The notes: a model not told the origin generated them from the sequence alone. 13,018 nucleotides of DNA from Candidatus Hermodarchaeota archaeon (GCA_016840065.1 JAEOTB010000120.1:1-13018); one strand, 5' to 3'. Positions 2,792 to 10,864 are shown, counted from the stretch's first letter. Program-made: numbers and translations.

Positions 2792-3352
2792 CTATAGTGC
2801 GACACGCCCTCGGACGCGGTCTATTCCATACCTTGCGATATTGATGAAGGATTCCTCGACGTTACTGCCATCTTTGGCGCTGGTTTCGAGAAAGGTTGCT
2901 CCCAGCTGTAAGCCCATTCCACTTCCTTCATCGTTACTCACAACCCTTTCTTTGATAAGGTCGGTTTTATTCCCGCACACAATCTTCAGGGCGTTGGAGG
3001 CAAAGCGGTCTACCTGCCTGCTCCAAGTAGGAAGGTTTTCGAAGCTTTCCCGGTTCGTAACATCATAGACTAGGAGAGCACCAATGGCTCCCATGAAGTA
3101 TCGTTCCACCAGATTACGGAAACGCTCCTGCCCGCCAGTGTCATAAACTAGTATGCCGACCCGTCTTCCGTCCACCTTAACCAGTTTACGGAAGATATCT
3201 GTGCCAATGGTGGCCTTGTATTCTTGGCTGAAGGATCCTGTCACGAATCTGCCTGTCAGGCTGGTCTTGCCTACTGCGGCGTCTCCTACGACGATTACTT
3301 TGAGGGATATGTCGGTGTCTGTTGGTTTTTGTGGTAGCGGTTCCCAGGACAT
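2792..3352 (-). CDS. Rab-like small GTPase (Ras superfamily)
   Basis: G1 GDAAVGKTS, G2 YKATIG, G3 DTGGQE, G4 NKTD, G5 ETSAK. RabF-like motifs IGTDI, RFRNLV, YFMGA, LVYDVT. Likely start is ATG 3352 (MSWEP), preceded by GGAGG. Confidence 0.95.
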   Translation of the reverse strand: MSWEPLPQKPTDTDISLKVIVVGDAAVGKTSLTGRFVTGSFSQEYKATIGTDIFRKLVKVDGRRVGILVYDTGGQERFRNLVERYFMGAIGALLVYDVTNRESFENLPTWSRQVDRFASNALKIVCGNKTDLIKERVVSNDEGSGMGLQLGATFLETSAKDGSNVEESFINIARYGIDRVRGRVAL

Positions 3353-3472
3353 GAGTAAACCTCCTATGTGAGCCATGTAAATTTTAGCTTTAATTCTTTT
3401 CTCTTTAGGAGTTAACTGTGTTTATTTATTTCCTGATGAAACATCCTGTGAATTGATTTACAGAAGGTTTAG

Positions 3473-5044: not shown

Positions 5045-5347
5045 CTATTCTTCGTCCTCTTCGTCGAGAGCTTCCTCGTCTTCATCCTCGAGGTCTTCTT
5101 TCTCGATACCTAGTTTCCCTAGTAGTTCTTCTAGTTCTTCCTCGCTCAGTTCATCGATGGGTTTTCCAGCTTCCCGCTCGATGACGATGACATGTCTACG
5201 GTGTAGACGCCAAGAAGCCCCGGCGACTGGTGCAAAAAGCCAGTATGCGCCGCGCCTAACTCTTCTGAAGTGTCGGCGTACGCGTCTACGAGTTCGGCGC
5301 CTGACCCGGCGGCGTACTCTTCGTCTTACTCTTGGTCTTGGACACAA
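5045..5347 (-). CDS. Small bipolar protein: Arg-rich N-terminus, acidic C-terminus
   Basis: TTG start preceded by GGGGAGGT. 20 Arg in the first 32 aa, encoded by all six Arg codons. 15 of the last 19 residues are D/E. Co-oriented with neighbouring genes. Confidence 0.8.
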   Translation of the reverse strand: MCPRPRVRRRVRRRVRRRTRRRVRRHFRRVRRGAYWLFAPVAGASWRLHRRHVIVIEREAGKPIDELSEEELEELLGKLGIEKEDLEDEDEEALDEEDEE

Positions 5348-6774: not shown

Positions 6775-7059
6775 GTGGATTACTTGAATCAATCTGACAA
6801 ACCTCTTACGAGGGGAGCTACCGTTTACTGCACCAGATGTGGGAAGGCCCTCCCCAGCGAACAGGAATGGTGCAGGAATTGTGGAGCTATCCAGGTGCGG
6901 TGCATGGTATGCAAGGGGGCTGTCAGATCAGCGGACGACTCGACCAAGTGCCCCCACTGCAAAGGCGTTGCGCACCGAGTCGATTTTCTGGAATGGCTTA
7001 AGGTCAAGGGGACATGCCCCCGCTGCAAGAAGAACCTGCAGAAGAAGGATTTATCCTAG
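6775..7059 (+). CDS. Zinc-ribbon + RING-type (C4-H-D-C2, RINGv-like) protein, putative E3 ligase component
   Basis: CTRCG-x8-WCRNCG ribbon, followed by C-x2-C-x12-C-x2-C-x4-H-x2-D-x3-W-x6-CPRC. Start may instead be TTG 6784 (AGGTGG upstream). Confidence 0.8.
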   Translation: MDYLNQSDKPLTRGATVYCTRCGKALPSEQEWCRNCGAIQVRCMVCKGAVRSADDSTKCPHCKGVAHRVDFLEWLKVKGTCPRCKKNLQKKDLS

Positions 7060-7084
7060 CTTACCTGATTCTTTGGCACATCAC

Positions 7085-7867
7085 TCATGTGGGAACCCTG
7101 GCTGAAAGCAGGAGGATTATTCCTAGTATTCCAGATGGAATCATCATTATGCTTCCAATCATTGTAAGGAAAGATGAACACCAGAAACTGCCAGTGATAA
7201 TGAAGAGAACTCCTGTCGCTATCCCCAATCCCTCATTGCCCATTTGAGTGCGGTTTGTAATCATGGAGCACCCCCAGAGGATAATCATGACACCTGTGAG
7301 GATGTAACCCACATAGGCCATTATGTAATATAGTGTATAGAGGGAGTAGTAGATGTAGTAGGGAGCACCATAGAGAAATGAGTAGAGGATTCCGGGTATG
7401 AGCTGGAACCAGATAAAGACCAGGGAGATAATGCAGGTTGCCAAAGCCAAGGTTGAACCATAATTTCTACGCAGACCATAGAACCCGAAAGCAGACATTA
7501 CTCCCCCCACGCAGAAGATGATGATTGGTATGAGAAATACAAGCGCTGCAGATGCACCGATAATCCAGAGAAAGATATAGATATATTCGAATACCCACAT
7601 CAGGGTGGCGGCAACCATCAGTATAATGAGCCCTATTGCTCCGATGATGAAGTAGGTCCTGCTAGGTTTTCCGGTTGGAGCCGCAGTAGGACCTAGGCGC
7701 TCACTGGGATATGCTACACGCTCCGCAGGGGCTGCCCTGCCTTCTTCTATACATTTCTTGCAGTGGCTTCTACCAGTGATCTTGATTTCGCAGTCCCTGC
7801 ACAAACCGATTCCGCAGGAGACGCATACAGCAATGGCATCTCTTTTCGAGTGTTTAGCACATTTCAA
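7085..7867 (-). CDS. B-box-like zinc finger membrane protein (paralog A, about 6 TM)
   Basis: C-x2-H-x8-C-x2-C-x4-C-x2-C-x9-C-x2-C at the N-terminus, Pro/Ala linker, about six hydrophobic segments. TTG start. Confidence 0.85.
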   Translation of the reverse strand: MKCAKHSKRDAIAVCVSCGIGLCRDCEIKITGRSHCKKCIEEGRAAPAERVAYPSERLGPTAAPTGKPSRTYFIIGAIGLIILMVAATLMWVFEYIYIFLWIIGASAALVFLIPIIIFCVGGVMSAFGFYGLRRNYGSTLALATCIISLVFIWFQLIPGILYSFLYGAPYYIYYSLYTLYYIMAYVGYILTGVMIILWGCSMITNRTQMGNEGLGIATGVLFIITGSFWCSSFLTMIGSIMMIPSGILGIILLLSARVPT

Positions 7868-7967
7868 GATATTTCCCTCGGGGAACCATTCTTACTATAT
7901 CCTAGCCTTTGTGGCATTTAAGTCTTCGATGTCACTCTTTTATTGATTCAAGGGCTACACCAGTTAT

Positions 7968-8864
7968 TCATGAACTTGTGGTGCTGGGTGTTTCTTCTTG
8001 TGTTCTTTCTAACCCGTATTTCGTCGAAACTAGTATCACTATGCTTATGATGCATCCCAGGACAAGGAAAAGGGAGGCTACTCCTAAGAGGAGAACCATA
8101 ACTCCCCTGAACCAGATGGCAAACTCTATTGGTCCAGGTGCGATGATAAAATCACTGGCAAGGCCTGTGATACTGGAGAAGAAGAACATGAGGGCTGAGA
8201 TACTTAGCAAGATTTTCGTAGTACGGGTTAGCCATTCATTAATATCGAAAAGACTTACTTCTCCAATTGCAGAAGACCAAAGCTCAAGGACTACTCCAAA
8301 GGCTGCGATGCCAATATCTCTGATGACAAGGTGAATAAAACTCACATTCATTCCGAGTAGGATTTCACCCAGCATCAGCCACCAACTGAGTATCAAAGTA
8401 CCAAAGAAGGCCACTAAGCTACTTCTTAACCCGTAGTTCCACCAGTAGCCAAAGAACCCGATTCCAGCGATAACACATGTAACAAGAAGATATGCCGAAC
8501 AGAAGATGTTGGTTGACTGGTAACCACCTAACCAGAACGAAACAAATTGAAAGTACGTGTAGATGCTTAAGGCAAGCACAAGGAATATCATACCTATTGC
8601 AGCTATGATGAAGAAGAGACGGAAAGGCCTCCTTGTCGATCGGGGAACCCTTACTTGGCGCGGAGCCCTAATCCTACGTGGCGGCCTTGTACGTGGGAGA
8701 GGACCGGGGGGAAGGGGAGGACTTGGTTGCATCTTTCCTCCTTCGAGGCAGGATTTACAGTAGGTGATACCCTGCACTGCGATTCGACATTCTTTACAGA
8801 CACCAGACCCGCAGCTAACACATGCACCTATTGCTTCTTTTCTATGATGCTTAGCACATTTCAA
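7968..8864 (-). CDS. B-box-like zinc finger membrane protein (paralog B, about 6 TM, most divergent)
   Basis: Same N-terminal finger (MKCAKH...CVSC...CKEC...CKSC), PSPPLPPGPLP plus Arg-rich linker, GFFGYWWNYG matching the paralogs. GAGGTGA precedes the TTG start. Confidence 0.85.
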   Translation of the reverse strand: MKCAKHHRKEAIGACVSCGSGVCKECRIAVQGITYCKSCLEGGKMQPSPPLPPGPLPRTRPPRRIRAPRQVRVPRSTRRPFRLFFIIAAIGMIFLVLALSIYTYFQFVSFWLGGYQSTNIFCSAYLLVTCVIAGIGFFGYWWNYGLRSSLVAFFGTLILSWWLMLGEILLGMNVSFIHLVIRDIGIAAFGVVLELWSSAIGEVSLFDINEWLTRTTKILLSISALMFFFSSITGLASDFIIAPGPIEFAIWFRGVMVLLLGVASLFLVLGCIISIVILVSTKYGLERTQEETPSTTSS

Positions 8865-8910
8865 CCAATCACCTCAACAATCAGGTAATATCTTACTCCT
8901 CATCTACTCC

Positions 8911-9759
8911 TCAGTAGACGAATTCTTCTGGAATCCTTGAGGTCGCCAGAGAAATCATCCAGAGGATGCCAGCGGGGATGAGCAGAATTGAGCCGACTGG
9001 GTAGAGAAAGATGGAACACCAGAAGCTTCCAGCGATGATGAAGATGATACCTGAAGCGATGGGGAGCCCGGCTTTCCCAGTATATTTACGAACGACGATC
9101 AGTGCGCAACCCCAGAGTATGAACAACACTCCGATTAGCGCAGACCCAACGATGTACAGTGCTATGTAGTGAAGGTAGAGTGGACCTGGCATCCAGTATG
9201 TGTAGTAGTATGTAGTGTAGGGAACGAAGACCAACCCAGTGGTTAAGAGAAGCTTGGATATCAGAAGGAACCAGGGGAAGATAAGGGAGATGATGAAGGT
9301 TGCCAGGCTCATTGTTGAGCCATAGTTTCTCCTGTAGCCATAGAATGCAATCGAGGCTACAACTATTGACGAGCACACCAGAATTAATGAAATCATGTAG
9401 ACAGGGGTTGGGATTGGTGGTATGAGAAACCAAGGGGTGAAGAACCCTGTGGTGTCATTAATCCAGTTCACCATCCCGACGGACATGAGTAATAGCATCC
9501 CGATGAAACCCATGATGAAGAAACCCCTTGTCGGTGGTCCAACTGGTTTTGGCTCAGGGGACACGCTTCGTATCGTGGGGGCGTATACATCATGTGTTCT
9601 TGTAGGAGTTGCGCGTGGTTCAAAGGCTCTTCCAGCCTCAACGCATGCTTTGCAGTGGGTTCTGCCCATAACGTTGATCTCACAATCCCGGCAAACACCG
9701 ATACCGCAAGAAACGCAAACTCCCACCGCGTCTGAAGTGGTATGTTTAGCACATTTCAA
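8911..9759 (-). CDS. B-box-like zinc finger membrane protein (paralog C, about 6 TM)
   Basis: Start reassigned to TTG 9759 (MKCAKH) by paralogy and upstream GGAGGA. TM domain closely matches paralog A (RRNYGST.LAT.IISL, ILWGC, GSFWCS). Confidence 0.85.
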   Translation of the reverse strand: MKCAKHTTSDAVGVCVSCGIGVCRDCEINVMGRTHCKACVEAGRAFEPRATPTRTHDVYAPTIRSVSPEPKPVGPPTRGFFIMGFIGMLLLMSVGMVNWINDTTGFFTPWFLIPPIPTPVYMISLILVCSSIVVASIAFYGYRRNYGSTMSLATFIISLIFPWFLLISKLLLTTGLVFVPYTTYYYTYWMPGPLYLHYIALYIVGSALIGVLFILWGCALIVVRKYTGKAGLPIASGIIFIIAGSFWCSIFLYPVGSILLIPAGILWMISLATSRIPEEFVY

Positions 9760-9918
9760 GAAACATTCCTCCAATTGATCTGGACTCAATACTCTCACCG
9801 TACTTTTTAAGTGAATTGGATTCGGACTATCCCCCGACGAGAAGTTGTATAACTTGATAGTTAGAAAAGAAGTTACAAATTTTATAAACAAACCTAGCTA
9901 TTCTTTCTGAGTGATAAA

Positions 9919-10140
9919 ATGATTCGTGATGACTGGGGACCAGATAAGGACAATGATGGAGTTGGTCTAAGGTCGCCAGAGACCATTGTCAGACCTAGCG
10001 ACAAATGTGAAATCTGTCGCCAGCGAAATGCAGTCACGCGATGCTTCTATTGTAAGAGTCAGCTCTGTGATTCGTGCATCCGTTGGGATGTTAGCTGGGG
10101 GGACCGGCGTCCCACCTGCGGCAATTGCATAATTCCTTAA
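9919..10140 (+). CDS. Small stand-alone B-box-like (8-Cys) zinc finger protein
   Basis: CEIC-x8-CFYC-x4-CDSC-x13-CGNC, with the same x8/x4 spacing as the adjacent membrane paralogs. TTTATAAA at 9881-9888, about 30 nt upstream. Confidence 0.75.
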   Translation: MIRDDWGPDKDNDGVGLRSPETIVRPSDKCEICRQRNAVTRCFYCKSQLCDSCIRWDVSWGDRRPTCGNCIIP

Positions 10141-10291
10141 TAGTAAAACTCTCCATTCTAGGAAGAAGGGTGTTGGGGAAGAGGGTATCACCGCTAAAAA
10201 TTAGCTAGGCTATTGAGACACCATTGACAATAACAAATATAGATGATAGATATGAAGAGTATATTGGAAATCCGGCTATTCGGGTGGGAAG

Positions 10292-10864
10292 ATGAAAATC
10301 AATTGGCCCAAAGCATGCGTAGCATGTGGTATTAGTAAAGACAGGTCTCCGCTCACGCCACACTATTATCCCTTCAAACATTCGCAACAGATTGGTGGAG
10401 GTCCCTCCCTCTATCTATGCCCCTCTTGCCATTCAAAGGCTAGAAAACGATACATCATCGGTTCTTTGTTCTTTATTCTTAACACAGTTTTTGCAATACC
10501 TGTTACAGTTTTTTTCTACTGGGCAACCATTGGCTTGATGAATGTACTCGGAGCATATCTTAGTGAACTAGAAGCCTCGCACTTATTAACATCCTCTCTA
10601 AATCAACAGGTCCTGATAAGTAACGGGTTGTTTCTAGGATTCTCACTCTATGCTCTCCTCTTTCTGAGTCTGGGGATCTTATGGATTGTTTTCAAGCGCC
10701 ATTTGTCAAAGCAATTCCTAAAAATCGAAGTGGGTAAACTTGAAAAGGAGCTAGCTGATTTAAAGCCAGTAAAAGAAGGTTCATTCTTTACGAAGTTTCA
10801 ATCCAAGGTTCGCTTATATGGCGAACTCTTTCGAGAAGCTAATCCGTGGTTGGGGCTACCATAA
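10292..10864 (+). CDS. Membrane protein with N-terminal CxxC...CxxC zinc-binding motif and 2 TM helices
   Basis: WPKACVACG...LCPSC, then two hydrophobic segments and a C-terminal FREANP. Confidence 0.75.
   Translation: MKINWPKACVACGISKDRSPLTPHYYPFKHSQQIGGGPSLYLCPSCHSKARKRYIIGSLFFILNTVFAIPVTVFFYWATIGLMNVLGAYLSELEASHLLTSSLNQQVLISNGLFLGFSLYALLFLSLGILWIVFKRHLSKQFLKIEVGKLEKELADLKPVKEGSFFTKFQSKVRLYGELFREANPWLGLP

Follow-up and report, generated by a model that had tools for sequence, protein, structure and literature searches.

A RING gene beside three tandem B-box membrane genes in an Asgard archaeon: two zinc-finger families that are probably neighbours by inherited synteny

TRIM E3 ligases are organized as a RING finger, a B-box and a coiled coil, and the MARCH/RING-CH ligases are membrane E3 enzymes in which a RING is joined to transmembrane (TM) helices. 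The B-box is itself a RING-like binuclear treble clef (PMC4506424), and where that source cites Burroughs, Iyer and Aravind (2011), prokaryotic B-boxes are associated with membrane-protein folding, stability and proteolysis, and not with ubiquitin (Ub). In the archaeal ubiquitin operons of Caldiarchaeum subterraneum and of Asgard archaea the E3 ligase is srfp, whose residues I30, W58 and R69 are needed for E3 activity, as mutants at these positions impair the reconstituted Caldiarchaeum cascade (PMC5654768). Here, we describe a locus at positions 6775-10864 of a 13,018-nt stretch of DNA (the window), which is the entire contig C89 (JAEOTB010000120.1) of bin G000, a marine-sediment metagenome-assembled genome (MAG) of a Candidatus Hermodarchaeota archaeon (GCA_016840065.1). 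Six consecutive open reading frames (ORFs) with Cys/His fingers were encountered there: a soluble zinc-ribbon (ZnR) and RING protein, three tandem B-box/6-TM paralogs (A, B and C), a 73-aa B-box-like ORF, and a CxxC/2-TM gene. The initial annotation had read the six genes as a candidate trans-acting, TRIM- or MARCH-like ligase system. We favour, with reasonable though not strong confidence, a different interpretation, in which two zinc-finger families have been separately expanded in this Asgard lineage and are neighbours by inherited synteny, with no dedicated multi-gene ligase system.

Linkage of the RING and B-box genes

We examined 31 B-box/6-TM loci outside the window genus, comprising 8 from the sister genus, 19 from other Asgard families, and four contigs from protein collections (one labelled Promethearchaeota, one labelled Thermoplasmata and two unlabelled). 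A profile derived from an alignment of 25 RING paralogs (alignment A4) was run over all six frames of the 4-8 kb flanks of each locus, and a RING was found in the flanks of none of them (0/31). The conserved linkage on which the six-gene proposal depended was thus not encountered across related genomes. RING adjacency was restricted to three syntenic loci within genus g1 (C89, C48 and G003:C158); co-occurrences at G000:C88 and G002:C143 were left uncounted, since the RING and 6-TM genes lie 3-5 kb apart there with unrelated genes between them. In the sister genus, the B-box/6-TM ortholog was found either divergent from 2-oxoacid:ferredoxin oxidoreductase (POR)/thiolase genes or next to an unrelated gene of 383-389 aa. 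The POR/thiolase arrangement also appeared at G000:C12 and on a Promethearchaeota contig, and it looks like the ancestral position of the 6-TM family in this archaeal family.

The three g1 loci share whole-contig synteny and therefore represent one evolutionary event. It was noted that the window is colinear with the 15-30 kb region of contig C48 of the same bin across 11.3 kb (75.7% nucleotide identity), housekeeping genes included, and because the whole contig is colinear, the RING/B-box adjacency is conserved no better than the background synteny. Self-comparison of bin G000 (2.59 Mb, 131 contigs, completeness 83.9%, contamination 5.08%) revealed many short contigs colinear with portions of longer ones at 72-86% nucleotide identity, and these sum to 136 kb, or 5.2% of the bin, the same as the contamination estimate. 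Given this agreement and the C89/C48 colinearity, C89 most likely derives from a second, closely related minor organism that was co-binned in G000, and its locus and that on C48 are probably orthologs, not products of a duplication. With what seem to be two related organisms mixed in the bin, per-genome copy numbers are inflated. The organism is an Asgard archaeon and the bin is of Asgard type. The window stretch was present in only three marine-sediment DNA runs, all from one study, and RNA runs were absent among the listed holders.

Separate expansion of the two families is supported by their numbers in the bin and by their arrangement elsewhere. The window RING is one of approximately 28 genes in G000 that share an srfp-like RING signature (signature scan), and the B-box/6-TM family gave 12-15 matches in this bin compared to 1-3 in the sister genus. 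Tandem arrays of 2-4 B-box/6-TM genes recur on unrelated contigs with RING absent, as at the 31 outside loci. The RING gene and the adjacent paralog A are convergent with a 25-nt gap, and they therefore share no transcript. Two of the six genes are also lineage-specific, and N-terminal B-boxes joined to polytopic membrane domains are common in Bacteria. These results do not support a reading of the six genes as one trans-acting system, and the evidence argues against treating the locus as a RING/B-box partnership.

Some observations weigh on the other side. The RING orthogroup of the window, which carries an Asp in place of a His at its sixth zinc ligand, was seen only where an A-type B-box/6-TM gene adjoins it, and the C48 triplet has RING genes on both flanks; with approximately 1% of genes encoding a RING, such double flanking is unlikely under random placement. 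These features could reflect a split TRIM- or MARCH-like ligase that operates at least within the genus, in which membrane B-box proteins would recruit the soluble RING in trans, or in which the RING would ubiquitylate them for turnover dependent on the endosomal sorting complexes required for transport (ESCRT). The immediate neighbourhood of the genes at three loci, and the membrane anchor of the second RING beside the C48 triplet, would be in keeping with such a ligase, although the three loci have a shared ancestry, the linkage is missing outside the genus and even in the sister genus, and the convergent pair is not co-transcribed. Likewise, Ub, E1, E2, RING and ESCRT genes occur in the bin, and the window RING has kept its E2-binding residues together with its private Asp ligand, whereas the B-box/6-TM family extends to a Thermoplasmata-labelled MAG, B-box membrane architectures are common in Bacteria, and of the six proposed parts, one is an orphan and one has only an unlinked paralog. 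We consider such a ligase unlikely. A complex prediction for the B-box (residues 1-70) with the RING (residues 15-94) scored 0.20, with the mark at 0.32, a result that speaks neither for nor against binding. It is distinctly improbable that the Asp-ligand RING is a soluble E3 recruited to a heteromeric complex of the three B-box membrane proteins, with RING and B-box cooperating in trans as a forerunner of the TRIM partnership or as a ubiquitin-ESCRT turnover switch. A RING/B-box partnership at an archaeal membrane would, if true, bear on the pre-eukaryotic origin of TRIM-type and membrane E3 ligases.

We also assessed how unusual the run itself is. All six finger-encoding ORFs described in the initial annotation were recovered at their coordinates, the coding status of the 73-aa ORF being uncertain, except that the third membrane ORF had been over-extended to 326 aa and is shortened here (Table 1). 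Approximately 8.5% of the 2568 rough ORFs in bin G000 bear a CxxC/H pair, and the longest runs of such ORFs are the window run and its syntenic twin on C48. Because tandem duplication accounts for three of the six genes, only about four independent events are involved, for which the rough expectation is 0.13 (0.085^4 x 2568). The run is unusual but statistically not compelling.

The RING protein, its paralogs and the ubiquitin machinery

Table 1. Coordinates of the zinc-finger run in the window (contig C89) and of ubiquitin-related genes elsewhere in the bin (contig C69).
Feature	Contig	Position (nt)	Strand	Length	Remarks
Soluble zinc-ribbon and RING-H2-like protein	C89	6775-7059	+	94 aa	GTG start; srfp-like, probable E3 paralog; Asp at zinc ligand 6
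Zinc ribbon of the RING protein	C89	6829-6882	+		Residues 19-36 (C19, C22, C33, C36)
RING-like finger	C89	6901-7026	+		Residues 43-84
B-box/6-TM paralog A	C89	7085-7867	-	260 aa	TTG start with Shine-Dalgarno sequence; Pro-rich linker, residues 42-70; TM helices, residues 71-254
B-box of paralog A	C89	7745-7867			Residues 1-41
B-box/6-TM paralog B	C89	7968-8864	-	298 aa	TTG start, Shine-Dalgarno GAGGTG; C48 ortholog at 22226-23128
B-box/6-TM paralog C	C89	8911-9759	-	282 aa	TTG start at 9759, not 9891; GGAGGA 8 nt upstream
73-aa ORF, B-box-like eight-Cys finger, no TM segment	C89	9919-10140	+	73 aa	Orphan; coding status uncertain
CxxC...CxxC and 2-TM protein	C89	10292-10864	+	190 aa	Hydrophobic spans 55-86 and 107-133; lineage-specific
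E1	C69	42791-43513			
E2	C69	43618-43983			
Ub	C69	44246-44437			
UEV-like E2 variant gene	C69	45552-45848			

The RING ORF is a real gene under purifying selection, since its differences from the C48 ortholog fall 13/7/42 at codon positions 1/2/3. A second open frame overlaps it in both loci (window 6839-7105 (+), C48 23963-24226 (-); 88 and 87 aa) and is probably a by-product of composition, as the codon-position pattern favours the RING frame. Word-based protein searches returned zero relatives for the RING protein, and the gene callers of the protein collections seem to have missed both the RING gene and the B-box N-termini.

The identity of the protein as a RING, proposed in the initial annotation, was confirmed by its fold, its eight ligands, RING-H2 profile matches and homology to the RING of the bin's Ub operon. 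Its finger reads C43-x2-C46-x12-C59-x2-C62-x4-H67-x2-D70 ... W75 ... C81-P-x-C84, while the A4 paralogs follow their zinc ribbon with C-x2-C-x12-C-P-x-C-x4-H-x2-H-[LF]-x-E-W-[LV]-K-V-K-G-x-C-P-x-C-[KR]. The ligands have the spacing of a RING cross-brace, and seven of the eight are invariant or nearly so over the 25 paralogs; position 70 is Asp in the window orthogroup (C89, C48 and G003:C158) and His in all other A4 paralogs. The single protein scored under the Pfam cut-offs for Prok-RING_1 (21.2/29.1 bits) and zf-RING_2 (19.8/27.3 bits). Against the PDB, the A4 family profile matched RING-H2 E3 ligases, including RNF24 (2e-8), Arkadia (7e-7), RNF165, EL5, RNF38, HRD1 and gp78. The AlphaFold2 (AF2) model has a predicted local distance difference test (pLDDT) score of 88-95 over residues 41-90, and Foldseek superposed it on the RINGs of TRIM37, Rad18, RNF24, RNF165 and Ring1B at a root-mean-square deviation (rmsd) of 1.1-2.0 A over 52-58 residues.

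The window RING is also similar to the RING of the operon on contig C69 (BLASTP 3e-12), and V45, W75 and K85 are the aligned equivalents of the E2-binding and linchpin residues I30, W58 and R69 of srfp. On the basis of the profile and PDB matches, the AF2 fold, the paralogy with the operon RING and the kept srfp residues, the protein is very probably an E3-competent RING. It would bind the genome's E2~Ub through V45, W75 and K85, and may select its targets through the zinc ribbon and the N-terminal tail.

The presence of Ub, E1 and E2 genes in the genome, raised as a check on the initial annotation, was confirmed on C69, where they form a Ub-E2-E1-RING operon with a small RING protein of 81 aa, although the window contig may itself stem from a co-binned close relative. 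The ubiquitin is 78 aa in length with GG at its end. Beyond the operon, C69 carries the UEV-like gene together with genes that, from a reading of their translations, are labelled as ESCRT-III-like and as encoding a Vps4-like ATPase. Within this Ub-ESCRT cluster a 498-aa protein was also noted (L011 13504-15000 (-), equal to G000:C69), which has a multi-Cys finger at its N-terminus and, as judged from its translation, a possible PH/GLUE-like region.

The RING family is large in this bin. A translated search gave 37 matches in G000. The counts were lower in genomes of the same genus (9-20), in the sister genus (4-10) and in other Asgard families (0-7). Most of the signature RINGs in G000 are C-terminal on type-I or polytopic membrane proteins, often in tandem. 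The bin thus contains a large receptor-like RING expansion, well above the copies found in the other Asgard families. Contigs of G000 carrying the signature include C5, C21, C25, C30, C48, C56, C62, C101, C106, C113, C116 and C131. In addition, the two-part ZnR+RING module (window 6829-7026; A4) was found to match the zinc modules at the C-termini of IFT-A and GATOR2 proteins. The match to WDR19/IFT144 had a profile E value of 5e-7 over 76 positions and a Foldseek TMq of 0.62 (rmsd 2.8 A, 79 columns), and further matches were obtained to IFT122, WDR24, WDR59 and MIOS. This likeness may offer a lead to how protocoatomer-type C-terminal RING modules originated.

The membrane B-box family and the two lineage-specific genes

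The three membrane genes each begin with TTG preceded 7-8 nt upstream by a Shine-Dalgarno sequence (GGAGG/GAGGTG/GAGGGA), and for paralog C the C48 ortholog begins with ATG at the same residue. They share the N-terminus M-K-C-x2-H-x8-C-x2-C-x4-C-x2-C-x9-C-x2-C, followed by a Pro-rich linker and six TM helices; in paralog B the TM domain has diverged and contains an additional insert, and the Pro/Arg linker is longer (alignment A1). The eight ligands C3, H6, C15, C18, C23, C26, C36 and C39 are invariant in 55 sequences and fit the B-box ligand pattern, with deviations in spacing at H6-C15 (x8, not x7) and in the last pair (C-x2-C, not His/His). Four window proteins scored under the 24.1-bit cut-off of zf-B_box (PF00643), with 17.2 bits (paralog A), 19.3 bits (paralog B), 14.9 bits and 21.1 bits (73-aa ORF). 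Among diverse relatives, 18/35 matched zf-B_box at E<=0.01 (best 9e-8), and one family member already carries the NCBI label 'B-box zinc finger protein' (MFX1562096.1). The B-box domain profile found TRIM28 B-box2 as its top PDB match (2.4e-3), followed by MID1 B-box1 (0.03), with LIM and FYVE-like fingers scoring similarly. The description of the membrane fingers as B-box-like is therefore supported by both the relatives and the PDB match.

The AF2 model of whole paralog A (85-sequence alignment) has a pLDDT of 93.4 and a predicted TM-score (pTM) of 0.80, with six helices and an N-terminal domain at pLDDT 96-98. Searches with the whole model were dominated by the TM bundle. The six-helix domain matched no Pfam family, and fold searches gave nothing specific: the best Foldseek PDB match had an E value of 0.44, and the wide VIA search returned nothing beyond generic helical bundles (Z<=12), among which a de novo six-helix barrel ranked first. 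Shape and feature searches of the ESM Atlas yielded low-scoring matches only, to hypothetical proteins or to other B-box membrane families. The nearest of these weak matches were bacterial proteins in which rhomboid, LiaF-TM or S2P domains are preceded by an N-terminal B-box, or which are labelled simply 'B-box zinc finger protein', and these architectures agree with the folding, stability and proteolysis association reported at the relevant citation in PMC4506424. A rhomboid intramembrane protease was tried as a candidate and rejected (Atlas match TM 0.38), because the catalytic Ser (GxSG) and His are absent: the TM region of 85 sequences has no conserved Ser/His, and its nearly invariant residues are Gly only.

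A profile search for the B-box/6-TM family returned 1883 cluster representatives at E<=1e-3 and 227 at E<=1e-10, far above the five relatives recovered by word-based protein searches; a search of genome contigs with the single protein found no related loci. The family was present in 49/201 Asgard genomes with a patchy distribution, including 15/18 in family f1, 20/43 in f6 and 6/6 in f18, and zero in several families, and members were labelled Promethearchaeota, Thorarchaeota and Thermoplasmata. It is an uncharacterised, widespread archaeal family that tends to form tandem arrays. Paralogs A, B and C each have their own C48 ortholog (61% identity for paralog A), and the triplication therefore predates the split of the two organisms. 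A second cluster in the bin, at G000:C12 (1640-4178 and 6946-7755), holds four 6-TM family members beside POR/thiolase genes; two of the four are without a B-box, and a further zinc ribbon is inserted in one of the four. At G000:C37 6487-6654 (-), a B-box of the same family type was also noted as a protein of its own (55 aa), directly downstream of a 436-aa polytopic membrane protein, with counterparts in G002:C33 and G014:C179.

The three old tandem paralogs would each present a cytoplasmic N-terminal B-box on a Pro-rich linker, ahead of the six-helix membrane bundle, with the B-box serving as a putative protein-docking or oligomerisation module. They probably act together as a membrane complex or sensor, given that other lineages hold tandem arrays without a RING. 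Some TRIM B-boxes have been reported to be E3-like or E2-binding modules, and the same could be supposed of these domains, the membrane proteins then being RING-independent ligases or adaptors to which the neighbouring RING is irrelevant. The RING-like treble clef (PMC4506424) and the invariance of all eight ligands would suit such a role, but no Ub/E1/E2 linkage was found at any family locus examined, the family occurs in a Thermoplasmata-labelled MAG, and PMC4506424, at its citation of Burroughs 2011, places prokaryotic B-boxes with membrane-protein folding, stability and proteolysis. We regard such a role of the B-boxes as very unlikely.

The 73-aa ORF and the CxxC/2-TM gene appear to be young, lineage-specific additions to the run. 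The finger of the 73-aa ORF (C-x2-C-x8-C-x2-C-x4-C-x2-C-x14-C-x2-C) aligns with the family B-box at all eight ligands (hhalign E 5.8e-5) and with Pfam zf-B_box at E 3.6e-4, under the cut-off, and a TATA-like box (TTTATAAA) lies 30 nt upstream of its ATG, at leaderless distance. It is possible, if somewhat doubtful, that this ORF arose by chance or is a fragment in decay, in which case the run would contain five genes and not six. No homologue was found in the bin, in 20 relatives or in a set of 5.8 billion proteins, and the ORF is absent from the syntenic C48 locus, where its place is taken by a 360-aa membrane protein ending in a ZnR+RING module, with a signal peptide, ectodomain and TM helix as read from its sequence. 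Its codon score of -0.01 bits/codon falls under the 5th percentile for real genes and is exceeded by that of an opposite-strand ORF; however, codon scoring is uninformative here, as the proven RING gene scores lower still. The complete ligand pattern, aligned to the B-box of the neighbouring family, and the TATA-like box speak for coding. For the CxxC/2-TM protein no Pfam family was matched, and just one relative was found, a paralog with 57% identity at G000:C49:8925-9449, which stands among unrelated genes with no neighbouring RING or B-box.

Two further genes of the window were noted. Ras-family small GTPases are typical of Asgard genomes, and one is encoded at 2792-3376 (-) (Pfam Ras 4e-51) and kept in the C48 synteny block. 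A conserved ORF of 100-104 aa, at window 5045-5347 (-) and C48 25847-26161 (+), has an extreme poly-Arg N-terminus (RVRRRVRRRVRRRTRRRVRR...) and a poly-Glu/Asp C-terminus, and matched no family in a Pfam scan.

Comparison with described systems

The useful yield of the locus lies in a catalogue of the srfp-like RING genes, many of them membrane-anchored, that have expanded greatly in one Asgard genome, in the definition of a widespread archaeal B-box/6-TM family, and in the ZnR+RING lead to the IFT-A and GATOR2 modules. Individually, the parts are of known kinds: the RING protein is a paralog of the srfp-like E3 type, and the B-box genes encode membrane proteins of a prokaryotic type. Similar to eukaryotic TRIM proteins, both finger types are present at the locus, and TRIM28 B-box2 is the top PDB match of the B-box profile. 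However, the fingers are on separate convergent genes, the B-box is on a membrane protein and the linkage is unconserved; a TRIM/RBCC E3 was rejected since the window genes are separate, lie on opposite strands and lack a coiled coil. The MARCH/RING-CH ligases resemble the locus in a C4H-type RING spacing and in that other G000 genes join such a RING to TM helices. Their RING-CH is N-terminal (C4HC3 with C-x-C), whereas the membrane paralogs in G000 have a C-terminal RING and the window RING is soluble; with no hydrophobic span in the 94-aa protein, it is no single-chain RING-TM fusion, and a MARCH/RING-CH membrane E3 was likewise rejected.

Other likenesses are to prokaryotic and protocoatomer-type proteins. 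As in prokaryotic membrane B-box proteins, an N-terminal, probably cytoplasmic, B-box-like binuclear finger precedes a polytopic membrane domain, but the six-helix domain of the window family has no Pfam family or specific solved fold, its last ligand pair is C-x2-C and not H-x-H, and the family is archaeal and often tandem. In IFT-A (WDR19/IFT144, IFT122) and GATOR2 (WDR24, WDR59, MIOS) the entire two-part ZnR+RING aligns in sequence and fold; those modules are partly degenerate and terminate large beta-propeller/solenoid proteins, an N-terminal region that the window protein does not possess. With srfp, the window RING shares a RING-H2-like finger with a central C-x2-C, and it keeps the conserved Trp, a hydrophobic residue following Cys1 and a Lys/Arg following the last Cys. 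It is also a direct paralog of the srfp-like gene in the bin's own Ub-E2-E1-RING operon. Unlike srfp, it stands outside the ubiquitin operon, carries an extra N-terminal zinc ribbon and an Asp for His at ligand 6, and belongs to a set of approximately 28 paralogs, the majority being fusions to membrane proteins.

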